Shown here in pieces: positions 2,258 through 14,443 of a stretch of 14,443 bases of DNA (position 1 is its first letter; every line of letters starts with the position of its first letter). The position numbers and the translations under genes were made by a program. The notes under the pieces were generated by a model. It saw only the letters and a list, made by a program, of their open reading frames with translations, had not been told where the DNA came from and did not search any database. Source of the DNA: Dendronephthya gigantea (Eukaryota); assembly GCF_004324835.1 (NCBI RefSeq), contig NW_021163311.1:138208-152650 (forward strand). Direction: 5' to 3'.

Positions 2258-2302
2258 CTGGAATAAAGATTGAAGAATACAGTTATGTACATGCCATAAA
2301 AC

Positions 2303-3597
2303 TGTCACTTGTCAACTCTCATGCAACTCTTGTTCTGGTTTGATCAAGCAATGATAGTTGATGAAACTCTCATGTAAACTCTCACTTGTCAACTCTCATG
2401 CAACTCTTGTTCTCGTTTGATCAAGCAATGATAGTTGATGAAACTCTCATGTAAACTCTCGCTTGTCAACTCTCATGCAACTCTTTTCTCGTTTGATCAA
2501 GCAATGATAGTTGATGAAACTCCCATGTAAACTCTCGCTTGTCAACTCTCATGCAAGTCTTGTTCTTATTTGATCAAGCAATGATAGTTGATGAAACTCT
2601 CATATAAACTCTCGCTTGTCAACTCTCATGCAACTCTTGTTCTCGTTTGATCAAGCAATGATACTTGATGAAACTCTCATGTAAACTCTCGCTTGTCAAC
2701 TCTCATGCAACTCTTGTTCTCGTTTGATCAAGCAATGATAGTTGATGAAACTCCATGTAAACTCTCGCTTGTCAACTCTCATGCAACTCTTGTTCTCGTT
2801 TGATCAAGCAATGATAGTTGATGAAACTCTCATGTAAACTCTCGCTTGTCAACTCTCATACAACTCTTGTTCTCGTTTGATCAAGCAATGATAGTTGATG
2901 AAACTCCCATGTAAACTCTCGCTTGTCAACTCTCATGCAACTCTTGTTCTCGTTTGATCAAGCAATGATAGTTGATGAAACTCCCATGTAAACTCTCGCT
3001 TGTCAACTCTCATGCAACTCTTGTTCTCGTTTGATCAAGCAATGATAGTTGATGAAACTCCCATGTAAACTCTCGCTTGTCAACTCTCATGCAACTCTTG
3101 TTCTCGTTTGATCAAGCAATGATAGTTGATGAAACTCTCATGTAAACTCTCACTTGTCAACTCTCATGCAACTCTTGTTCTCGTTTGATCAAGCAATGAT
3201 AGTTGATGAAACTCCCATGTAAACTCTCGCTTGTCAACTCTCATGCAACTCTTGTTCTCGTTTGATCAAGCAATGATAGTTGATGAAACTCTCATGTAAA
3301 CTCTCACTTGTCAACTCTCATGCAACTCTTGTTCTCGTTTGATCAAGCAATGATAGTTGATGAAACTCCCATGTAAACTCTCGCTTGTCAACTCTCATGC
3401 AACTCTTGTTCTCGTTTGATCAAGCAATGATAGTTGATGAAACTCTCATGTAAACTCTCGCTTGTCAACTCTCATGCAACTCTTGTTCTCGTTTGATCAA
3501 GCAATAATAGTTGATGAAACTCTCATGTAAACTCTCACTTATCAACTCTCATGCAACTCTTGTTCTCGTTTGATCAAGCAATGATAGTTGATGAAAC
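2303..3597. repeat. 77-bp satellite array, about 17 units, occupying nearly all of eIF2gamma intron 6 (2258-3639)
   Basis: Unit tgatcaagcaatgatagttgatgaaactctcatgtaaactctcgcttgtcaactctcatgcaactcttgttctcgtt; period 76-77 measured at 2341, 2418, 2494, 2571. Confidence 0.95.
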
Positions 3598-3962: not shown

Positions 3963-4652
3963 CTAAGAAATATTTTTCTTGAAATATGGGGTAGATACTG
4001 TAGGCATTCTATTTTCTGCAATGAACTACATATATTCTTTGAAATATGCTACAGCAATGGGTAGGTAAGGAAAATTATCCAGAGTTTCTGATTTCTTTTG
4101 TCTGTCAGTGAAGAAATATTAAAATTGTATGGCTAATTCCAAGGCTAATTGTCGGTGGAGTAAATAAACTTTTGGGTAAAAATAAATAAGAAATGTTCGG
4201 AATAGAATTATCTTGTGTTAATCAAGGGCAAATCTAAACAAAAATCAGTCTAGTTGAGAGGCCTTGGGTTTGTTGCAAATGCACTAGACTTAAATATTAA
4301 GCTTAGTGGCTCTTGTTTTAGTTGATAGGTTCTTCTAATATTTTAGATCCATACATTCAAGACGAAATGTCAAGTCTATAACTATCAATATATGTAGTGA
4401 TCATTGTACAGTACGTGATTAATTAAAGGTCTGTTCACACAATACAAATTTATCAGATCCAATTCACTTCTGATGGATTTTTTATAATCTGTTGACTTGC
4501 AAAGTATACGGGCAGCAAATCAACTGAAGCCAATGCAGACTGTTTTATCAATAACAAACTATATTCCATACATCAGAAGTGAGTTGGACCCGACAAAGTT
4601 GTACAGTCTGAACAGGCCTTAATTTGTTTAAGTATTTATATAACCATAGTAC

Positions 4653-5413: not shown

Positions 5414-5450
5414 CTATAAAATTTAAAAGACATAACCTTTTCAGCTCAGG

Positions 5451-5610
5451 CATTAGCTTGCAATGCACCCAGATGTGGCCTACTTTAGTATTTTACTCTG
5501 TCTAATGTCAGATGATTTTACTCATCAGTGGAAGAGTACTGTCAGTTAATAAGTTAACAAAACTATCTGTCAGTGTCTCTTGTTAACCCATTAGCTTGCA
5601 ATGCACCCAG
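5451..5610 (+). repeat. 138-bp repeat family, copy A (about 1.15 units) in eIF2gamma intron 1
   Basis: Unit gttaacccattagcttgcaatgcacccagatgtg...actcatcagtggaagagtactgtcagttaataagttaacaaaactatctgtcagtgtctctt. Confidence 0.85.
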
Positions 5611-5926
5611 CAACTGATCTGGTTAACTTGCACACGAATCTTTGCACAAATATTTTACCAAAAACAGCCTGAGATTGCCTTAACTTCTATTTAAATATCT
5701 TACAAATAGTTTAGTTTACAAAGAAGAATCAACCATTCCACAATAATAAGAATTCAAAGCATTATTAGATCTCGAAATAAGACTCATTCCTGAGTCAGAT
5801 CATGCCGTAGAAACCACATAAAAAGCGATAATTTTTGCAGTATAAACTCACTTCATATCTACAAAGGTAAAACTATACATAGGGACCAAGATCTTTGTAG
5901 GACGGGGAAAGGATTGGAATAAAATG

Positions 5927-5980
5927 AATATGCTTACCAATTTTGATAAATCCTGCTTTGATAAGCGAGGCTGGCCTACC
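5927..5980 (-). CDS. EIF2S3: eIF2 gamma exon 1 (start codon at 5978-5980, minus strand): MSTEVGQPRLSKQDLSKL
   Basis: Reverse complement reads ATGAGCACCGAG...AAATTG followed by donor GTAAGC; matches N-terminus of eIF2gamma (human ...GQPHLSRQDLTTL); phase 0. Confidence 0.8.
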
Positions 5981-6119
5981 TCGGTGCTCATGATTGCATC
6001 AACAAGGTTTTGTTGATGAAATAAAAATGAAAATTTTTCTTGCGTAAAAAAGCAAAAAATGAGCGAAATTCTGCTTCGAGCTGATGCAATACACGAGTGA
6101 CGGTCAGTGACCATTGATC

Positions 6120-6478
6120 TCTGTAACTGGAGTGATCACGAGAGATGCACTGAGGGATAAACAACACTGGAGTGATAAAAGAGCACCCACTGAGAGACAA
6201 GTGTAACTGGAGTGATCACAGAAGATACACTGAGAGATAAGTATAACTGGAGTGATCACAGAAGACGCACTGAGAGATAAACATACTGGAGTGATAACAA
6301 AAGACGCCCTGAGAGATAAGCACAACTGGAGTGACTACAGAAGACGCACTGAGAGATAAGTATAACTGGAGTGACTACAGCCAGACGCACTGAGAGATAA
6401 TTATAACTGGAGTGATAAAGAAGACACACTGAGAGATAAAGCATTACTGGAGTGATCAAGTGTAAGCATTACTGAAAA
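6120..6478. repeat. 40-bp minisatellite (about 9 units), 140 bp upstream of the eIF2gamma start codon
   Basis: Unit actggagtgatcacagaagacgcactgagagataagtata; actgg recurs at 6126, 6166, 6206, 6246. Confidence 0.9.
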
Positions 6479-7053
6479 GATACATTACCCACATCTTAAC
6501 GGCTATCTAAGGGGAAGATGCACTACGGCCCCCAGACCATGATGTATGTGCACCTAACCGTTACGTCTCAGTGAGAAACAGAGTATGCATTGCCACAAGC
6601 CTAGCGCGTCATAGACGAATCAGCTACAATGACAAGCCTTGAGAGCGAAGATAAATTTAACGTATTTAAGCTTTCCATTGTGACTCACCAAAAAACTTTC
6701 ATTTTTCCACACGGAATAGTTTTAATGTACACTAATAAGTATATCTACATAAAATCATGGTGCAACTAATTAAAGAGATCTATACATTTACTGAGGACGG
6801 TGATCTTCAATACAAGATGTTGAACTTAAAAGTGTACATATAAGTGCAAAAATAATCAAATTTTATCTTACAACAAACTAATATTTTCATCGCAAGGTTA
6901 AAATCAAAAGTGTGCAGTCTGTGAGGTATATTTTTTCAGTCAATAAAACTATACGAAATTATGTCACGGTTAGGCTAGAATAAACACGGCTAATATCAAG
7001 TCTATAATGAATTAAGACGAGAAGTTGAATATTTTGAAGACGCATTCTTATGG

Positions 7054-7251
7054 TTAAGCAATCAGCACTTCTTTGTCGTCAAAGGCCAGTTTTTCAGGCA
7101 ACGGCTCAGCTTTCATCCACCAAAATTCCTCGTTGCCCTTGCTGATTTCATAAGCTTTCTTGCTCTTGCGACAGCAACACATAGCACAGCACATCATGGA
7201 TGCCAAGACGACAAGGAGCCAAGCCGACAAGAATTGCAACTCGCGCGCCAA
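7054..7251 (-). CDS. Orphan coding exon / small ORF encoding a TM helix plus palmitoylation-like Cys cluster and basic tail (LARELQFLSAWLLVVLASMMCCAMCCCRKSKKAYEISKGNEEFWWMKAEPLPEKLAFDDKEVLIA*)
   Basis: 66-codon open frame ending TAA at 7054-7056. It begins with TTG, not ATG, so it is not a complete gene. A ttgttccag acceptor lies at 7252-7260. I found no upstream ATG exon in 7260-7440. Confidence 0.25.
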   Translation of the reverse strand: MARELQFLSAWLLVVLASMMCCAMCCCRKSKKAYEISKGNEEFWWMKAEPLPEKLAFDDKEVLIA

Positions 7252-7297
7252 ACTGGAACAAAGGCTTTTGCCGTGGTGATGTTTCTAGATAATGTAG

Positions 7298-7366
7298 ATA
7301 TTTATTACATATATTTTTACATATTATATTTATTACATATTAAATTTATTACATATTATATTTAAG
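7298..7366. repeat. AT-rich microsatellite, about 16-bp unit (atttattacatattat)
   Basis: tttattacatat recurs 4 times. Confidence 0.8.
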
Positions 7367-7455
7367 GGTAGATATTTACTACAACCTGAGGCGGTTCGAG
7401 GTTTAAATAACAAAGAGGAATTTCATTTTAAACTAATCGGTGACATTTTTGAGGG

Positions 7456-7578
7456 AAAGCCAATCAGAATGCGTACATTTTAATTACTTCATGTAAAATG
7501 GTACATATTGTACTTTTTATCAAAATTTATGCATTCTGATTGGCTTACTGAAAATGTAAACAAACTTGCTGATTGGCT
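7456..7578. promoter_or_regulatory. Cluster of three CCAAT/ATTGG boxes, two forming a perfect 16-bp inverted repeat (aagccaatcagaatgc ... gcattctgattggctt)
   Basis: CCAAT at 7459-7463; ATTGG at 7537-7541 and 7572-7576; arms 7456-7471 and 7530-7545 are exact reverse complements. Confidence 0.45.
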
Positions 7579-7810
7579 AAAACGAAATTCTAAATAAATC
7601 GATTGAAATCGTCTGAAAAACCACGAAAAAAATCGATTTTTTAAAGTTTTTTTTTAAGTCCTGGCAAAATATTGCTGTAAGAATAAACTTCACGCATACG
7701 AATTCAAAAGTTTACTCTAGAAAGCAATCGTATTTTGGTATAATACTAATCCTAATATTCACAAAAAGCATTTTCTTAAAAATAAACCGTACAAATTCTC
7801 CGCTATTAAA

Positions 7811-8001
7811 CATGAGCCCGGTTACCGAGATTTAAAGAAGCGTTAAATTGACTTTGAGTTTTTGAAATGAGTAAATAACATGATCCTGGTAGTCGTGAAG
7901 TCATTCTAACAATAGCATGCAATGTTTCTGTTTCAAAAGACTTTTCTCAATACTTAAAATTCCGTTTTACGCTTCGTTAAATCTCCGTAACCTGGCTCAT
8001 G
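7811..8001. mobile_element. Foldback / MITE-like element with about 36-bp imperfect inverted arms
   Basis: catgagcccggttaccgagatttaaagaagcgttaa (7811-7846) against ttacgcttcgttaaatctccgtaacctggctcatg (7967-8001), about 85 percent complementary. Confidence 0.5.
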
Positions 8002-8041
8002 CGAAGAACGTTTAAAATAAGAATTTGTTTACTTTCTCAGG

Positions 8042-8420
8042 CTTAGGGCGTGTTTATATGATCCCGTCTAGCCGGGACGGGATGTTTTCATCCCGCTTAG
8101 CCGGGAAACTCGCCTACGCGGATGGCGTGTTTATATGGAGTTCATTTTGTGGTGCAGGTTCCTTCGACGGCATGTTTTATTGTAGAAAACGAGTATGCCA
8201 ATATATACACATGCTCCTAATGTATGTTAATCGCGAATCATCTCGGCCAAGCGGGGATGGAGTGTTTATATGGCAATTTCTCGTCCTGTCTAAGCGGGAT
8301 CCCGGCAAGAAGTGCCGAAGAAAAGTGGTCATATAAACACTAATTAGCGTTTGTACTACAAGCGGGATCTCGGAAACTGTCCCGTCCCGGCTAGACGGGA
8401 TCATATAAACAGGCCCTAAG
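8042..8420. mobile_element. MITE (379 bp) with 41-bp terminal inverted repeats and subterminal gtgtttatatg / cccgcttagccggga motifs
   Basis: Left end cttagggcgtgtttatatgatcccgtctagccgggacggga against right end tcccgtcccggctagacgggatcatataaacaggccctaag (1 mismatch); no unambiguous TSD. Confidence 0.8.
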
Positions 8421-8546
8421 TTGAGCTACCGTTGAATCAAGGACATATGCTCCACTTTGCTAAAAAGCATCTTCGATAGTTACTAATACTACGCTATTTT
8501 GTTTAAATGTGACTGAGTTTTGAACTTTACGACAGTGGTATGAATT

Positions 8547-8650
8547 TTATCCACACATTTTATACAAAACTTTTGAAAGCTTTACATGATGACCATATCC
8601 TTTCTCGTCTGGCAGAGATGGATCCAAAAATCTTTTCGGCTTTTTGTCAT
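8547..8650 (-). CDS. Candidate terminal exon of signal-peptide gene: (N)DKKPKRFLDPSLPDEKGYGHHVKLSKVLYKMCG*
   Basis: Only phase-compatible acceptor (cttctag) downstream of exon 4; TAA at 8547-8549; weak support. Confidence 0.3.
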
Positions 8651-8690
8651 CTAGAAGTTTCAAATAGTTCGGATATTGTTACCAAATTTA

Positions 8691-9250
8691 GCTCCATCAG
8701 TTCTAAACTGTTCTTCCTAGAGGTCCAGTAAGGATCATCTCTTATTGATCCAGTGTTACTACAGGAGGAAACCTAAACTAAACTAACTTTATTTATACTG
8801 GATAGCTCTATAGTTCTAAACTGTTCTTTCTAGAGATCCAGTAAGGATCATCTCTTATTGACCCAGTGTTGCTACAGGAGGAAACCTAAACTAAACTAAC
8901 TTTATTTATACTGGATAGCTCTATCAGTTCTAAACTGTTCTTCCTAGAGGTCCAGGAGGGATCATCTCTTATTGATCCAGTGTTACTACAGGAGGAAACC
9001 TAAACTAAACTAACTTTATTTATACTGGATAGCTCTATCAGTTCTAAACTGTTCTTCCTAGAGGTCCAGTAAGGATCATCTCTTATTGATCCAGTGTTAC
9101 TACAGGAGGAAACCTAAACTAAACTAACTTTATTTATACTGGATAACTCTATCAGTTCTGAACTGTTCCTCCTAGAGGTCCAGTAAGGATCATCTCTTAT
9201 TGATCCAGTGTTACTACAGGAGGAAACCTAAACTATATTTATATTGGATG
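8691..9250 (+). repeat. 114-bp satellite family, cluster 3 (about 4.9 units) in last intron of the signal-peptide gene
   Basis: Five tandem units with minor variants (113-114 bp). Confidence 0.9.
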
Positions 9251-9270
9251 AACAAGATACAATAACATAC

Positions 9271-9385
9271 TTTTTCCACAGTATCTGGACAACTCAGCTT
9301 TTTTAATGTTTGATTCCTCGAACTTAACCGCAGCAATTGTTCGTCTGAATTCTTTGCCATTCACATCCATATGAATTGTCAGCAC
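9271..9385 (-). CDS. Signal-peptide gene exon 4: VLTIHMDVNGKEFRRTIAAVKFEESNIKKAELSRYCGK
   Basis: Acceptor ctactcag, donor GTATGT; open frame, phase 0 in / 1 out, consistent with exon 3. Confidence 0.6.
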
Positions 9386-9464
9386 CTGAGTAGATTAGAT
9401 TGATTTTTAAAGCTATTAAAGTGTTTAATATCCTTATGCATTCAACAGGACTCTTGATTCTTAA

Positions 9465-9885
9465 GCCCTGGTCAAACGAGAATGATAGTTGATGAGAGTT
9501 GAGAAGCGAGAGTTTGCACGAGAGTTTTCCAAACTCTCGATGCGCCGGTCAAACGAGAATGAGAGTTGAGAACGAGAGTTGATTACGGCGCGCATTAATT
9601 TCGTCCTTACTCCACTTCGTTTTGCTTTTTTTGTTTCTGCCCGTTGTTTTCAGAAGATTTCTTTTTTTTTTCAAAAAAATTGCAAACCGCTAGCTGTTTT
9701 GCAACTCTCATCAACTCTCATGACCGATCAAACGCGCCCAAACTCTCATCAACTCTCATCAAAATTTGAACCAGTTCAAAGTCAATGAGAGTTGATGAGA
9801 GTGCACGAGAGTGTATGAGAGTTCGCGGTCAAACGCAAGCGAGAGTTGCAACTCTCATCAACTCTCATTCTCGTTTGACCAGGGC
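9465..9885. mobile_element. MITE (421 bp) with about 40-bp TIR GCCCTGGTCAAACGAGAATGA.AGTTGATGAGAGTTG, flanked by TTAA on both sides (9461-9464 and 9886-9889); lies in intron 3 of signal-peptide gene
   Basis: Left cTTAAgccctggtcaaacgagaatgatagttgatgagagttg; right caactctcatcaactctcattctcgtttgaccagggcTTAAa; internal ctctcatcaactctcat subrepeats; TTAA duplication is piggyBac-like. Confidence 0.8.
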
Positions 9886-9911
9886 TTAAAGGTTTCATCC
9901 ATAAAAATTAC

Positions 9912-10057
9912 CTGAACATCGACTTGTTCAACTCGCTTTTCATTAATGAATTGCACTTGTTCTTCGATCAAATATTGATGTCCCGATTCCAGCTCCTTTC
10001 TCATCACCATTACGTGAATTATGACAGGAAGAATGCGAACATCTTTGGCAGAGTAAA
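9912..10057 (-). CDS. Signal-peptide gene exon 3: (V)YSAKDVRILPVIIHVMVMRKELESGHQYLIEEQVQFINEKRVEQVDVQ
   Basis: Acceptor tttcacag, donor GTAATT; phase 1 in / 0 out. Confidence 0.6.
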
Positions 10058-10276
10058 CTGTGAAATGAATACACAACAATTAGCCCAGAACTTATCCAAA
10101 TCTTCTCTGTCAAAAGAATTTAGGCTGTATGCACATGAAGGTAAATCAGTTATGATTTTTGGCACTTCACTCGAGGTAGGTAAATTCTAATGGTTCTTAG
10201 GGTGTTAATTTCGAGTGGAATTATACACACTTCAAATTCAAGCCAGGAACAGTTGATGGAAAATGAGTCAACTATC

Positions 10277-10352
10277 GGTCCTCCGGCAGAAATCGAACCT
10301 ATGCTTTTGCGATGCCGGTGCAATGCTCTTGCCACTGAGCTACAGAGGTAGC
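10277..10352 (-). ncRNA. tRNA-like Pol III element (degenerate tRNA or SINE head) with A box TAGCTCAGTGG and B box GGTTCGATT
   Basis: Minus strand acctctgtaGCTCagtggcaaGAGCattgcaccggcatcgcaaaagcataGGTTCGATTtctgccggaggacc; resembles tRNA-Ala but acceptor and T stems do not pair. Confidence 0.45.
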
Positions 10353-10741
10353 TGACAAGAGCAAGCGTGGTTAGTGTGCATATGATGGTAATCATCTGTG
10401 TGCACATGAGCGTCGTTTTCGAACATTCTCAAAATCGTTTTCATCCAGATTATTGCTTTGACACTTTGTCAACATGATCCAAGGGAAAATATGCTGAATA
10501 TGTTAAATTAGCTTCAAATTGACTGTGTTTGAAACAGTTTGAAATGAAAACGAAAATGTAAATGCGTGCACATGCATAGCCTTAGAATGAAAAAGCTGAA
10601 CCTGACTGCACCATTAGTGGAAGGTGTAAAGTCTGATTCAAAAGCTATGCTGGAAACTTAGTTTCAAAATATCACTGCTGTAGAAAACATTCAAAGTGAA
10701 GAATATATTTATAATAGCAAATAAATTTAGGTTGTTCGTAC

Positions 10742-10841
10742 CAATCTCAGCAGTGAGGTCGTACTTCGTAAGAACATCTAGTTCTGTGAGTTTCCCATTA
10801 ATTCTGACACTGTCTTCCTGGATTGTAATGTTCAATTTCAC
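10742..10841 (-). CDS. Signal-peptide gene exon 2: VKLNITIQEDSVRINGKLTELDVLTKYDLTAEI(V)
   Basis: Acceptor aattctcag, donor GTACGA; phase 0 in / 1 out. Confidence 0.6.
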
Positions 10842-10896
10842 CTGAGAATTAATACAACAGCATTGTGAGCAATAAATTATTTATTAAATGTTAAAG

Positions 10897-11140
10897 TAGG
10901 TCACATCTGGGTGCATTGCAAGCTAATGGGTTAACAAGAGACACTGACAGATAGTTTTGTTAACTTATTAACTGACAGTACTCTTCCACTGATGAGTAAA
11001 ATCATCTGGCATTAGACAGAGTAAAATACTAAAGTAGATCACATCTGGGTGCATTGCAAGCTAATGGTTATCACAGATAGTTTTGTTTACTTGGTAATGA
11101 CAATGATCAAGTGGTGAGTAAAATCATCTGGCTGATGGAA
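10897..11140 (-). repeat. 138-bp repeat family, copy B (reverse orientation, about 1.7 units) in intron 1 of the signal-peptide gene
   Basis: Reverse complement of the unit: aggtcacatctgggtgcattgcaagctaatgggttaacaagagacactgacag... Confidence 0.85.
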
Positions 11141-12035
11141 CTTATAAAATAAATAAACGTTTATAAAAGTACATTTAGAGACGCCTACTATTGCAAAGTC
11201 ATTGCTAAATTCAGCTGAGGCAATCTTAAAGACACAGCTAGCAACTTTGAGGAATTTTTCCCGTTAACAAGAGGCAAAATTGTGCTTTGTCATGTTTTTG
11301 TGGGGAGGAATTTCATCAACAACACGCAATAATAGTTATGTAATAACTTGCTTTCTATAACGTTATATAAAAATATAGATTAAGAAAACTTCCGACCGCA
11401 AATTTCCCACTTAAAACGACTATCTGAAGACGTGCAGGTGTTTTCAAAAAGGGTATTAAAACAAGACTTGTACAATATGAATAATGTTCAGATATTGACA
11501 CATGCTGGGAATATTTCGTCGCTTTTATTTTGCGATTTTATGAACAACGATCTTAGTTGATAAAACCAAGTTTCGTTTCGATTAAAAGCAGGAAGATTTT
11601 GAAGCGATGTTTTGAAGCTTCGATCGCAGTTTTGTTCAGATCAATCGAAGCAATTTTTGCGTTTTAAAAGGAAAAAGATTAGAGAAAGTTTTGGCAGCTA
11701 AAGGCGCCATAGACAAGGACATGTCACAACTTATTTCCTTCTTTCCCAAATTGGATTCCCGGTTACAAAAGAAAACAAAACAAAGTACCAACGTTTCCTC
11801 GAAGAAAATACACTGCAATTCAACTGCCTTGGCTGCAGATTTTCGTTTTGATTCAAAACGAAACAATCTGAACTTTGTGTGAAAGCCGTGTCGCAGTTAA
11901 ATTCAAAGTATTTTAAGCTCTTTCTATGCCGAATATAAACGCCGCATTTCTATGTTTACAAATACAAGACTCTATCATCCATTACTGGGCTACTTTTAAC
12001 TAGTTTTCTCTTCGAATTCATGCACAAATACTTAC

Positions 12036-12209
12036 AATAACTTCGGTTTCTCGTCTGCCGTTTGCGGAGTCTTCCTCCTCGATGATTTTCACAGAGATAG
12101 AGAGCTTCTCTTTTGAATGTTTTGTGCCAGATTTGAGGTCGTTTTCGCCGGCAAAAACTGCCTGGAATATCGCCAAAAACAAGACGAAATGGCCAAGCAC
12201 TTCAAACAT
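12036..12209 (-). CDS. Signal-peptide gene exon 1: MFEVLGHFVLFLAIFQAVFA|GENDLKSGTKHSKEKLSISVKIIEEEDSANGRRETEVI (predicted cleavable signal peptide)
   Basis: ATG at 12207-12209 (minus), hydrophobic h-region then VFA-G, consensus donor GTAAGT at 12030-12035; faces GC-box promoter. Confidence 0.55.
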
Positions 12210-12417
12210 GGTTTATTTGCTCAAAAAACAGATATAAAAGCGATAATATTGAACAGGAGAAGCACAGCGCGAATGCGGATTGCAATATGTAAACAGCTTG
12301 GAAAAGCTGTATAATATTTACATATTAACTCGTTGCAAGGGTGATAACTATTGTTATTAATACTATCGGTTAATAATTAATGACCATATATAGAGCCAAG
12401 ATTCAACGTATTATACA

Positions 12418-12660
12418 TATGCGGATAATCCCTTAGATAATCCGGTAAAGTTAATCCGGTAGAATTAATCAGTAGCAGTAATCAGTGAGCTCACTGGCAG
12501 TAATATCCAGATTCAACGAATGTGATCCTAAACCCTAGAGAATTAGGTTTAAAATAGATTAAGGATTAGACTAACTCGATTAAAGATTAGATTAGATTCG
12601 GTCAATGGTTAGAACTTAGAATGAAAGCTTGCATTGTAGAATATGGATATAGGATTATCT
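12418..12660. promoter_or_regulatory. Cluster of TAATCC / GGATTA (K50 homeodomain-type) motifs upstream of signal-peptide gene
   Basis: gataatccc, gataatccgg, gttaatccgg, ggattagac, aggattatc plus several TAATCA / GATTAG. Confidence 0.25.
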
Positions 12661-12739
12661 GATTTAATTTCGTTGAGATCCAGATATCCTATGTCTATGT
12701 TAATAATATATACAATGCAAGCCTTATCTAGATATGGTA

Positions 12740-13056
12740 GCCCACCCCATAGGGAACACCAGCTACATGATCAGTGATGGTACCACTACACGTTAACGAT
12801 ACCCCCCGCCCTCCTCATAGCCCACAGACGTCACTCGAGTTTTTTAAATTTCAATGAAGTAATATTACCCTCCTATATTGACCGCCAACCCACGCCACAA
12901 GGCCAGAGGGCCCCGCCCCTCCCCCTATCGCGTGCGACCCCCTCTGGCAAGCAGTTCAAGTATGCCTAAAGTACTTGACCTTTGTACGTTGGAGCTCTCT
13001 TTATATCTCATTTCCATATTTCATTGAAATTTGAATAAATATTCAATACAAATAAA
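12740..13056. promoter_or_regulatory. Bidirectional GC-rich promoter between divergent signal-peptide gene and ferredoxin gene (GC boxes ccccgcccc at 12911-12919 and ccccccgccctcc at 12803-12815, CACCC box at 12743-12749, TATA-like ctttatatct at 12999-13008)
   Basis: Only GC-rich island in window; lies between two divergent ATGs 847 bp apart. Confidence 0.55.
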
Positions 13057-13223
13057 ATGGCTCATCTTCGAAGACTCGCATCGCTTTCCACGAGAAGATC
13101 TTTGAGGAAATCCTTGTCAAGTTACTTGTATTCGTCTTCGACAAAACTTCAAAACAACGTCGCTTTATGTGGTACCACTTATCGTCATGTTAGTTCGAGT
13201 GGAGCAAAATTACAGCCGGACAC
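13057..13223 (+). CDS. FDX1: Ferredoxin exon 1: MAHLRRLASLSTRRSLRKSLSSYLYSSSTKLQNNVALCGTTYRHVSSSGAKLQPD(T), Arg/Ser-rich mitochondrial presequence
   Basis: ATG 13057; donor AC|GTAAGT (phase 2); presequence-like composition. Confidence 0.65.
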
Positions 13224-13410
13224 GTAAGTCGATGAAAATGTATATTTAATTATGTATATATTTCACGTTTTAGTGTTTACTCGAAGTCATATGGCGATTG
13301 AGTGATTAATTAAAACGAATTCCCGTTTTTATGTAATTCTTCAATGTTCACTTGGCTATATTTTGCTAAAAAAAACGACACCAACAATAATTTTACTCAT
13401 GGGAAGAGTT

Positions 13411-13720
13411 GTTAACCCATTAGCTTGCAATGCACCCAGATGTGACCTATTTAAGTATTTTACTCTGTCTAATGTCAGATGATTTTACTCATCAGTGGAA
13501 GAATACTGTCAGTTAATAAGTTAACAAAACTATCTGTCAGTGTCTCTTGTTAACCCATTAGCTTGCAATGCACCCAGATGTGACCTATTTAAGTATTTTA
13601 CTCTGTCTAATGTCAGATGATTTTACTCATCAGTGGAAGAGTACTGTCAGTTAATAAGTTAACAAAACTATCTGTCAGTGTCTCTTGTTAACCCATTAGC
13701 TTGCAATGCACCCAGATGTG
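13411..13720 (+). repeat. 138-bp repeat family, copy C (2.25 tandem units) in ferredoxin intron 1
   Basis: gttaaccc recurs at 13411, 13549, 13687 (period 138). Confidence 0.9.
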
Positions 13721-13829
13721 TTTTTTTAGTTTTCAAATAATTTAGGAGGATATTGCCTCCTTTTGACTGGCCAACCAGTGACTGGCACCGGATTTCACGG
13801 CTTCAAAGGTTTGTTTGTTTCTTCTCCAG

Positions 13830-13936
13830 AGCATCAATCACATTTCACGATCGAGATGGCGACAAGAAAACAGTTTCAGCCAAATATGGAGATTCACTTC
13901 TTGATGTTGCAAAGAATAATGATATTGATTTGGAAG
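13830..13936 (+). CDS. FDX1: Ferredoxin exon 2: (T)ASITFHDRDGDKKTVSAKYGDSLLDVAKNNDIDLE(G)
   Basis: Acceptor ttcttctccag, donor G|GTAAGA; matches adrenodoxin [36 protein letters not shown]. Confidence 0.85.
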
Positions 13937-14021: not shown

Positions 14022-14157
14022 GTGCTTGTGAAGGAACTCTGAGCTGTTCAACTTGTCATCTTATATTTGATCCGGACGAATTTGCCAAGTTGGATCTACC
14101 TGAACCAGATGATGAAGAACTAGATATGCTTGATCTGGCCTATGGTTTGACACCAAC
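14022..14157 (+). CDS. FDX1: Ferredoxin exon 3: (G)[44 protein letters not shown](T); [2Fe-2S] Cys ligands CxxxxxCxxC
   Basis: Acceptor catcgag, donor AC|GTAAGA; near-identical to human FDX1 [50 protein letters not shown]; remaining exons off-window. Confidence 0.9.
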
Positions 14158-14159
14158 GT

Positions 14160-14443
14160 AAGAGATGATCCTTACTGGACCTCTAGGAAGAACAGTTTAG
14201 AACTGATAGAACTATCCAGTATAAATAAAGTTAGTTTAGTTTAGGTTTCCTCCTGTAGTAACATTGGATCAATAAGAGATGATCCTTACTGGAACTCTAG
14301 GAAGAACAGTTAAGAACTGATAGAGTTATCCAGTATAAATAAAGTTAGTTTAGTTTAGTTTCCTCCTGTAGTAACACTGGATCAATAAGAGAAGATCCTT
14401 ACTGGACCTCTAGGAAGAACAGTTTAGAATGATAAGAGCTATC
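14160..14443 (-). repeat. 114-bp satellite family, cluster 4 (reverse-complement orientation, 2.5 units or more, truncated by window end) starting 2 bp after ferredoxin exon 3 donor
   Basis: Plus strand reads agagatgatccttactggacctctaggaagaacagtttagaactgatag..., the reverse complement of the unit. Confidence 0.9.

Follow-up and report, generated by a model that had tools for sequence, protein, structure and literature searches.

A satellite-like 138-bp repeat related to the coral MITE CMITE in first introns of three neighbouring genes of Dendronephthya gigantea

CMITE is a piggyBac-type MITE described from Acropora millepora and A. palmata, with TTAA target-site duplications, CC[C/T]T ends and an internal region that is better conserved than the TIRs (Wang, Zhang, Meyer & Matz, 2010, PLoS One 5:e10700; PMC2872659). 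This conserved region of about 75 bp is shared across families, the elements are of homogeneous size at about 100 bp, and they occur in tandem arrays with conserved inter-element sequence, one copy lying in an intron; the original study found none outside Acropora (PMC2872659). Insertions of piggyBac favour highly expressed genes, along with the regions immediately up- and downstream of the TSS, a preference for the TSS that was measured with insect piggyBac in mouse cells (Yoshida et al., 2017; PMC5333637). Satellite-like repeats dispersed in short arrays near or within genes are known from Tribolium castaneum as TCAST-like elements (PMC3411249), and Crassostrea gigas has satellite-like repeats borne by Helentrons (PMC7492417); these families also make long heterochromatic or Helentron-internal arrays (PMC3411249, PMC7492417).

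The sequence analysed here, referred to as the window, is a stretch of 14,443 nt from the octocoral Dendronephthya gigantea with three neighbouring genes. It contains a 138-bp unit that, judged by its sequence, is related to CMITE but has decayed and been copied in tandem.

Arrays and genes of the window

The 138-bp unit forms three short arrays, one each in the first coding intron of the genes for eIF2-gamma, LOC114541665 (gene 2) and ferredoxin (Table 1), where "first" means first within the coding region, which introns in the 5' UTR may precede. All six exons of the LOC114541665 model agree with NCBI XP_028417269.1, and the ferredoxin has a Fer2 domain match in Pfam. Tandem Repeats Finder gives a period of 138, 2.3 copies and 99% matches at 13409-13720, repeat comparison within the window links 5451-5610, 10886-11067 and 13417-13720 at 95-98% identity, and the array limits were refined via alignment to the 138-bp unit. 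The first-pass annotation had reported one copy of the repeat per gene, each in intron 1, and none elsewhere in the 14.4 kb; alignment, gene models and an nhmmer profile of the family, which found no further copies elsewhere in the window, agree on this. Its mixed orientations are likewise borne out, arrays A and C lying on the plus strand and B on the minus strand, so that relative to the host genes A is antisense and B and C are sense. Its limits for array A stand, whereas those for B (10897-11140) and C (13411-13720) were off by about 10-20 nt and become 10886-11132 and 13390-13720.

With a head-to-tail unit of defined length the arrays have the make-up of a satellite, and at 1.16-2.4 units they are very short for satellite DNA. 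Full units are 96-99% identical among the three arrays, which lie 0.3-1.3 kb downstream of the start codon; some 45 nt separate the end of array B from the 3' splice site of its intron. The 847-bp divergent region at 12210-13056 is presumably a bidirectional promoter.

Tandem repeats occupy about a quarter of the window, with some repeat in several introns, and 7.24% of the D. gigantea genome (PMC6447388). A second MITE in the window, TTAA-flanked and located at 9461-9889, has likewise given rise to a 77-bp tandem array.

Table 1. Genes, first introns and repeat arrays, in window coordinates.
Feature	Position	Strand	Remarks
eIF2-gamma coding exon 1	5938-5990	-	MSTEVGQPRLSKQDLSKL
eIF2-gamma intron 1	5414-5937	-	
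eIF2-gamma exon 2	starts 5413	-	
Array A	5451-5610	+	1.16 units (unit positions 1-138, then 1-22); eIF2-gamma intron 1, antisense to gene
Gene 2 (LOC114541665) coding exon 1	12036-12209	-	signal peptide encoded
Gene 2 intron 1	10842-12035	-	
Gene 2 exon 2	10841-10742	-	
Array B	10886-11132	-	gene 2 intron 1, sense; three parts
Array B, degenerate partial unit	11132-11068	-	
Array B, full unit	11067-10930	-	
Array B, terminal partial unit	10929-10886	-	
Intergenic region, gene 2/ferredoxin	12210-13056		divergent, 847 bp; arrays B and C on either side, inverted pair
Mitochondrial ferredoxin (adrenodoxin/FDX2-like) coding exon 1	13057-13223	+	
Ferredoxin intron 1	13224-13829	+	exon 2 from 13830
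Array C	13390-13720	+	ferredoxin intron 1, sense
Array C, deleted partial unit	13390-13417	+	
Array C, full units	13418-13555 and 13556-13693	+	1 base apart
Array C, final piece	up to 13720	+	about 27-28 nt of a further unit
Conserved CMITE internal core in array C unit	13457-13502	+	ATTTTACTCTGTCTAATGTCAGATGATTTTACTCATCAGTGGAAGA; two direct sub-repeats of about 23 nt; includes 5-bp hairpin

Anatomy of the unit and its relation to CMITE

Each unit consists of a TTAA-CCC CMITE 5' end, the internal core, a decayed 3' inverted repeat in which AAAGGG before TTAA has become ATAAG, and the short spacer AAAACTATCT. The conserved internal region of CMITE is present: the published 60-nt internal consensus (PMC2872659) matches the D. 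gigantea unit at 37/42 bases, the unit of L001, a 3.6-kb metagenome scaffold from a related soft coral, at 45/51, and the units of L003-L006, which comprise a metagenome contig and the mis-binned "bacterial MAG" CBDDTI01, at 48-55 of 55-59. Four of the five differences between the D. gigantea core and the consensus are CpG decay. The homology extends over the whole unit, spacer and TTAACCC junction included, which aligns with the TTAA-flanked, TIR-bearing units of about 113 bp in L003-L006, and two insertions of about 12 nt each account for the growth from such a CMITE-plus-spacer unit to 138 bp. The spacer is common to the tandem dimers of L005 and L006, in keeping with the conserved sequence between CMITEs in tandem arrays (PMC2872659).

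The TIRs with a CC[C/T]T motif, which are found in L003-L006, are missing from the D. gigantea unit, where the 5' end reads TTAA followed by CCCATTAGC, the 3' end reads ...TAATAAG before TTAA, and the two ends are complementary at only about 9-11 of 14-17 positions. TTAA is retained at the unit junctions inside the arrays, and none of the six outer array boundaries is TTAA. At 138 bp the unit also departs from the homogeneous size of about 100 bp. The imperfect hairpin that had been noted in the unit does exist but is trivial, with a 5-bp stem and -2.1 kcal/mol, and against shuffled sequence the unit as a whole has no folding advantage (z = +0.2 to +0.5), whereas an intact CMITE, the L006 unit, forms a long hairpin (z = -7.7). 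The D. gigantea units have decayed TIRs and have lost the hairpin.

Age, conservation and placement of the arrays

The L001 scaffold, which provides the orthology data for arrays B and C, is colinear with D. gigantea over an interval that starts in ferredoxin exon 1 and reaches gene 2 intron 4. It covers array B together with unique sequence on either side, and this array has the same three-part structure, intron position and orientation in both species; at the position of array C the scaffold stops 34 nt into a unit of the same orientation. Since B and C lie at orthologous positions in the same orientation, their insertions predate the species split, and the comparison shows that the common ancestor of D. 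gigantea and the related soft coral already had both arrays, with the same architecture. L001 and L002 both end inside repeats.

The full unit of array B (10930-11067) is identical to L001 2274-2407 at 128/134 positions, or 95.5%, a value to be read with the caveat that repeat stretches of L001 may reflect a family consensus and that short-read polishing of the D. gigantea assembly could homogenise copies. It is the most conserved 134-nt window of the 4.4-kb orthologous alignment; for the same species pair unique non-coding DNA is 70.0% identical (n = 2087) and coding exons are 81.9% identical (n = 700), the binomial P value for the full unit being 8e-14 when the non-coding rate is the reference and 2e-6 when the exon rate is. 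The partial units adjoining the full unit are 74-76% identical, near the rate of unique non-coding DNA, and the non-core parts of the full unit are about 92% conserved too. On this alignment two or more of the three copies are old, with unusually high conservation, and, barring an assembly artefact, an identity of 95.5% calls either for selection or for exchange of sequence with family members that are themselves conserved.

First introns, less the arrays, account for 14.1% of non-coding bases in the window, which gives a chance of 0.0028 that all three arrays fall in first introns and of 4e-4 that one falls in each, although these probabilities are only nominal because the pattern was noticed post hoc, n is 3 and the arrays are possibly non-independent. 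Three cases cannot demonstrate a real first-intron preference; the pattern is most plausibly a biased choice of insertion site helped by luck in a small sample, with no demonstrated rule, and it fits the bias of piggyBac towards the TSS. The two explanations first offered for it, an insertion preference for promoter-proximal open chromatin and a retained regulatory role, both have indirect support, the former from the piggyBac-type MITE origin of the unit combined with the TSS preference of piggyBac (PMC5333637), the latter from the orthologous positions of B and C and from the full unit being the most conserved stretch.

The most credible alternative to a history driven by the element family, though itself doubtful, is that one full CMITE-derived unit per first intron is held under host purifying selection as an exapted regulatory element, for instance an intronic enhancer, an insulator or a docking site for a DNA-binding protein, possibly of piggyBac origin, that acts on the adjacent promoters. 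The full unit, at 95.5% against 82% for exons, surpasses every other stretch of the locus, and its conservation has a sharp boundary, since the adjoining partial units decay at about the non-coding rate. Arrays B and C have kept position, orientation and architecture across species on the flanks of a divergent promoter, all three copies lie a short way (0.3-1.3 kb) past the start codon, and the core is built of two direct sub-repeats, as a protein-binding site might be. Orthologous position together with conservation above the unique non-coding baseline is seen for one species pair and one full unit. However, this conservation is neither specific to the element nor independent of exchange among copies. 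An unrelated 114-bp repeat family, at 84% overall and 90% in its best window, also lies above the exon level, so that excess conservation is not peculiar to the 138-bp unit. Arrays A and C have a derived T (in ATGTCAG) at a site that is C in array B, in the orthologues of B and C on L001 and in the majority of the CMITE copies compared, a distribution indicative of sequence exchange among the copies and not of constraint acting on each independently. Changes from the Acropora consensus, being mostly CpG decay, look mutational, and array A is antisense to its gene where B and C are sense. The narrower proposal that soft corals co-opted a single CMITE-derived unit as an intronic element close to promoters, under purifying selection stronger than that on the neighbouring coding exons and perhaps bound by a DNA-binding protein of piggyBac or other origin, and that it now marks first introns of housekeeping genes, is unlikely.

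Slightly less likely again is that the unit is a neutral dispersed tandem repeat, junk in a repeat-rich genome, whose placement in three of three first introns is coincidence and whose excess identity arises from assembly or polishing. The tandem-repeat content of the window (about a quarter) and of the genome (7.24%) would suit such a view, as would the similar, weaker conservation excess of the 114-bp family and the ends of L001 and L002 within repeats, which indicate that the assemblers struggled. It sits poorly with the copy-specific differences that each assembly retains, numbering 3-5 among loci and 5-9 across species, with partial units that were not homogenised in the same arrays, with the unique flanks of array B in L001 and with the nominal chance of 0.003 for the intron placement.

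That the unit or its hairpin is a structured RNA, such as an intron-borne miRNA or snoRNA, is very improbable: intact MITEs such as the L006 unit do fold as long hairpins, and the 5-bp hairpin lies within the conserved core, but the D. gigantea unit folds like its shuffles and has no Rfam match even at E <= 1, array A is antisense to its host gene, and the hairpin arms lack consistent covariation among CMITE copies. Least probable of all, B and C could mark, in inverted orientation, the two ends of a larger mobile or duplicated segment carrying the divergent promoter and both first exons, as their inverted arrangement 2.3 kb apart at 95-98% identity and their common form, starting mid-unit (B at about unit position 57) and ending at about 28-44, might suggest, but the two have no similarity outside the arrays, the enclosed exons are integral to two conserved genes, a third copy, array A, falls outside any such segment and the arrangement is stable in the related species.

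Proposed history and relation to known systems

The explanation that we favour, with a probability of roughly 0.55, is that the 138-bp repeat is a satellite-like, immobilised CMITE derivative that was inserted near promoters and has been conserved via family-level exchange, its first-intron pattern being a product of bias and luck. CMITE copies or mini-arrays would have been inserted near active promoters by a piggyBac-like transposase and, because piggyBac favours TSS flanks and the genes are compact, would have fallen in first introns. The arrays would then have been lengthened or shortened through slippage or unequal exchange and would have lost their inverted repeats, and with them the capacity to be excised, while full units probably stayed nearly unchanged by exchanging sequence with conserved copies of the family at other genomic sites. 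As unbiased gene conversion alone is unable to slow divergence, such exchange is the most likely cause, with constraint acting on the element family as a whole, of the kind noted before for the core of CMITE (PMC2872659); a host function of these particular copies is less likely. Because no array is bounded by TTAA duplications or intact TIRs, transposase insertion of the present arrays is something we infer rather than see, and constraint for the sake of mobility does not easily explain about 92% conservation of non-core sequence in a unit whose TIRs have decayed.

The range of CMITE, so far reported only from Acropora (Hexacorallia), is extended to Octocorallia, which implies that the oddly conserved family core is very old or is moving between lineages. 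The material also documents a clear route by which a mobile MITE turns first into a spacer-bearing tandem dimer and then into a satellite-like unit that is immobile, and the step from MITE to array has a second, unrelated example in the same window. Orthologous arrays that are better conserved than exons offer a concrete, testable case for asking whether the CMITE core serves the element or the host, and, should the first-intron bias hold across the genome, the elements would lend themselves naturally as markers of how piggyBac-type transposons choose their targets in cnidarians. To our knowledge no insertion data exist for coral piggyBac-like elements.

The D. gigantea arrays resemble CMITE in the same core, better conserved than the ends, in the TTAA-CCC 5' junction, in tandem arrangement with a conserved spacer and in intronic location, but differ in unit length (138 bp against about 100 bp), decayed TIRs, the absence of a hairpin and of outer TTAA duplications and, relative to the CMITEs of Acropora, in their octocoral host and in the presence of arrays at orthologous sites in two species. 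The L003-L006 units are alike over the whole-length alignment, including AAAACTATCT, and occur as tandem dimers that repeat every 113 bp or so; unlike the D. gigantea unit they have perfect TIRs of 16-22 bp, the inner part of which covaries between copies, and TTAA at both ends. The TCAST-like and C. gigas repeats are of unrelated sequence and transposon vehicle, yet they too form euchromatic arrays of one to few monomers, many of them intronic; some are linked to transposons, and a role in gene regulation has been proposed for them. Arrays A, B and C bear no insertion signature, and the parallel with piggyBac lies in site preference: in compact genes, a preference for TSS flanks would put MITE copies in first introns.

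Genes and repeats of the window

The window is eukaryotic sequence with a G+C content of 36.9%. The protein of gene 2, the signal-peptide gene LOC114541665, has 100% identity across 197 aa with the NCBI entry 'uncharacterized protein LOC114541665 [Dendronephthya gigantea]' (P0001, XP_028417269.1), which occupies six exons when placed on the minus strand of the window and identifies the source as this octocoral. Gene 2 and ferredoxin are divergently arranged, with their start codons 847 bp apart, and exons 1-3 of eIF2-gamma are short, at about 18-25 aa. A second D. gigantea protein resembling that of gene 2, P0006 (LOC114538315), is encoded on another scaffold of 375 kb. It is identical to the window copy in exons 1-5, and the last exon contains two frameshift-like differing stretches over which P0006 is similar to orthologues from other species. 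The pattern suggests that P0006 is a haplotig or a recently duplicated copy, and that gene 2 of the window has indels, whether genuine or introduced in assembly. About 181 bp are tandemly duplicated across part of an eIF2-gamma exon (11 residues encoded), which leaves this gene with a second copy of the exon fragment, or a pseudo-exon, in the adjoining intron.

A 138-bp period is detected by Tandem Repeats Finder at 13409-13720 (2.3 copies, 99% matches), and a repeat search joins three places in the window at 95-98% identity. The limits of these three short arrays, A, B and C, were set by aligning the window sequence to the 138-bp unit. The first-pass annotation had reported one copy of the repeat per gene, always in the first intron, in mixed orientations and with no copies elsewhere in 14.4 kb; all of this is confirmed, the last point by an nhmmer profile run over the window, with 'first' counted within the coding region. 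In unit coordinates the ends of the arrays fall within about 22 nt (A at position 22, C and B at about 28-44) and their starts differ; a Helitron-like or 5'-truncated origin was considered for this pattern and set aside at n=3. Older relic units were sought in the flanks of the arrays, where alignments score no better than shuffles. No ORF within the repeat is longer than 28 aa, repeat-encoded peptides joined end to end matched nothing in a protein search, and a scan of viral contigs for the core was likewise without a match.

Features of the window, with coordinates, strand and structure
Feature	Coordinates	Strand	Remarks
Array A	5451-5610	+	1.16 units; eIF2-gamma intron 1 (5414-5937); antisense to gene
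Array B	10886-11132	-	degenerate partial, full and terminal partial unit; gene 2 intron 1 (10842-12035); sense
Array C	13390-13720	+	deleted partial unit, two full units and 28 nt; ferredoxin intron 1 (13224-13829); sense
eIF2-gamma	start codon 5990; exon 1 5990-5938; exon 2 from 5413	-	continues past the window's left edge
Gene 2, last exon	7057-7286	-	
Ferredoxin, mitochondrial-type 2Fe-2S	exons 1/2/3 13057-13223, 13830-13936, 14022-14157	+	Pfam Fer2
Duplication of ~181 bp	736-793/917-974, 793-839/975-1021, 885-916/1047-1078		eIF2-gamma; 83-91% identity
40-bp tandem array	6124-6458		8.3 copies, 79% matches; 130-470 bp upstream of eIF2-gamma start codon, presumed promoter region
77-bp satellite	2299-3597		16.9 copies, 97% matches; eIF2-gamma intron
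114-bp unit family	167-476, 1865-2076, 8689-9235, 14159-14443		mixed orientation
MITE-like element	9461-9889		gene 2 intron 3; 41-bp terminal inverted repeats, 98% complementary; TTAA-flanked
Inverted-repeat element	8041-8420		about 380 bp; near-perfect ~40-bp terminal repeats (CTTAGGGCGTGTTTATATGATCCCGTCTAGCCGGGACGGGA...)
Smaller inverted-repeat elements	4412-4634, 7811-8001		62-82-nt arms, 73-77% complementarity
tRNA-Ala-like sequence	10277-10349	-	anticodon GGC (ARAGORN; Rfam tRNA, 36 bits)

Several other repeats occupy the window, and the three inverted-repeat elements are all intronic or intergenic. The 77-bp satellite shares ~80% identity with the subterminal part of the MITE-like element and is the window's second, unrelated case of a MITE-derived tandem array. 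Of the 114-bp family, at least three arrays occupy introns other than the first in the three genes, and the start of the ferredoxin copy coincides exactly with the splice donor of exon 3 (14158/14159).

Orthologous arrays and conservation of the full unit

A protein search with gene 2 matched an ORF (P0005) on L001, a 3.6-kb Tara metagenome scaffold whose sequence runs colinear with that of the window, starting at ferredoxin exon 1, crossing the divergent promoter and reaching gene 2 intron 4. Its exon 1 and exon 3 products share about 85% identity with their D. gigantea counterparts, and this scaffold is therefore assigned to a related soft coral. Array B is matched there in site, orientation and three-part structure, and L001 breaks off at its left end 34 nt into a unit that follows orthologous intron sequence and has the position and orientation of array C; a second contig with the P0005 ORF (L002, from the Logan assembly of a sequencing run) also ends inside the repeat. 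The occurrence of B and C at orthologous sites indicates that at least these two arrays are older than the split of the two species. The 429-bp MITE of gene 2 intron 3 is absent from L001, as is a stretch of ~460 bp in intron 2 that contains the tRNA-Ala-like sequence, probably a tRNA-derived insertion or pseudogene found only in the D. gigantea lineage. L001 also has the orthologue (3253-3594) of the 114-bp array in gene 2 intron 4, at 84-90% identity and above the exons.

Identities between D. gigantea and L001, counted per segment of a MAFFT alignment, are 70.0% for unique non-coding DNA (n=2087) and 81.9% for coding exons (n=700). The full unit of array B reaches 95.5% (128/134), with the caveat that repeat stretches of a metagenome scaffold may mirror the family consensus; it includes a 60-nt run with zero differences, ranks first among all 134-nt windows of the alignment, and has a binomial P of 8e-14 if the non-coding rate is taken as reference and of 2e-6 if the exon rate is. 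The partial units that flank it are 74-76% identical. The D. gigantea full units of the three arrays are separated by only 1-5 differences even though at least two of the loci predate the split, a similarity to which short-read polishing could have contributed by drawing the copies together. Unbiased gene conversion spreads mutations among copies and leaves their average divergence unreduced, so that the conservation needs one of three causes: purifying selection, exchange with constant family members, or artefact. The core of CMITE, the piggyBac-type coral MITE, is itself evidently held constant across corals.

The most likely cause, with a probability of about 0.55, is that family-level constraint together with exchange between copies would keep the full units alike. 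Judged from these alignments, we prefer such a generic cause to one in which A, B and C themselves have a function, for two reasons. The unrelated 114-bp array, orthologous too, also lies above the exons (84% overall, 90.3% in its best window). In addition, A and C carry a derived T (ATGTCAG) at a site that is C in B, in the two L001 orthologues and in the majority of compared CMITE copies, a sign that sequence was exchanged or copied from locus to locus once the species had separated. What stands out in these results is how old the arrays are and how well they are conserved at orthologous first-intron sites. The main rival to family-level constraint is that these copies serve a regulatory role in the host; given the 114-bp array and the derived T, we regard this as rather unlikely. 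Coincidence combined with artefact, through a consensus-like repeat in the scaffold or through polishing, ranks after it and is similarly improbable, pure artefact being disfavoured by the copy-specific differences and decayed partial units kept in both assemblies.

Placement in first introns

First introns, with the arrays subtracted, make up 14.1% of the non-coding bases of the window, which gives a nominal P of 0.0028 for three of three arrays in first introns; for one array per first intron the nominal P is 4e-4, both values being post hoc, based on three events and dependent on assumed independence, which three cases within 8 kb may not have. An insertion preference, the first suggestion of the first-pass annotation, is plausible by analogy since the unit stems from a piggyBac-type element: insertions of piggyBac are enriched in highly expressed genes, with maxima immediately up- and downstream of transcription start sites (PMC5333637), and the genes here are so compact that the downstream side would coincide with the first intron. 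No TTAA, as an insertion signature, is present at the ends of A, B or C. In contrast, the 114-bp family has four arrays in the window and none in a first intron. Tandem repeats account for 7.24% of the D. gigantea assembly (PMC6447388) and for about a quarter of the window, where several introns contain some repeat. With no insertion signature, possibly dependent cases and a repeat-rich window, the first-intron pattern is suggestive and unproven.

The unit as a CMITE derivative

Conserved stretches of the 138-bp unit, used as exact patterns against public collections, matched one metagenome contig (L003) and three contigs (L004-L006) from a MAG listed as bacterial. On these contigs the matched stretch is the interior of a ~95-bp element with perfect 16-22-bp terminal inverted repeats starting CCCTTT and TTAA at both sides, frequently found as a tandem dimer with AAAACTATCTCCC between the copies. 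The D. gigantea unit can be aligned to these units over its full length, spacer and TTAACCC junction included, and its surplus in size is explained by two ~12-nt insertions and a decayed 3' repeat.

The three MAG contigs (CBDDTI010000659.1, CBDDTI010000591.1 and CBDDTI010000654.1, respectively) are labelled 'bacterium' in GTDB and carry coral-type CMITEs. An exon on L006 is by eye like the N-terminal part of animal TBC1D20, with no Pfam match; it is common to four further loci (L007-L010) at 80-83%, with no CMITE there, and related ORFs sit on megabase-scale contigs of other assemblies. Animal DNA, probably cnidarian, seems to have been mis-binned into this MAG. In one CMITE copy on L004 (2717-2866) a core sub-repeat of ~25 nt (CCAGACGATTTTACTCTGTCTAA), usually present twice, occurs three to four times, so the CMITE core can expand by internal tandem duplication.

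The imperfect hairpin noted in the first-pass annotation is present as a 5-bp stem at -2.1 kcal/mol, but the whole unit folds no better than shuffles (z = +0.2 to +0.5); intact CMITE forms a strong hairpin (z = -7.7). A hairpin or structured element is rejected on these scores. Nor is a known RNA family indicated, Rfam at gathering threshold finding only the tRNA in the window and array B having no match at E <= 1.

Elements named CMITE were described in Acropora by Wang et al. 2010 (PMC2872659) as elements of about 100 bp with TTAA target duplications, CC[C/T]T ends and a 75-bp internal region conserved above the inverted repeats; they are connected with piggyBac-like transposons, and in their tandem arrays both the elements and the intervening sequence are alike (PMC2872659). 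The published 60-nt internal consensus (PMC2872659) is matched by the D. gigantea unit at 37/42 positions, by the unit of the related octocoral (L001) at 45/51 and by the L003-L006 elements at 48-55 of 55-59 bases, and four of the five D. gigantea mismatches are CpG-to-TpG or CpG-to-CpA changes. The consensus match, whole-length alignment and lost hairpin identify the 138-bp repeat as an immobilised CMITE derivative, without the features for piggyBac-type excision and surviving as a small tandem repeat. The elements of L003-L006 are of just the type published as CMITE from Acropora (PMC2872659), and the 138-bp element is a new octocoral member of this already known family, immobilised and tandemly repeated.
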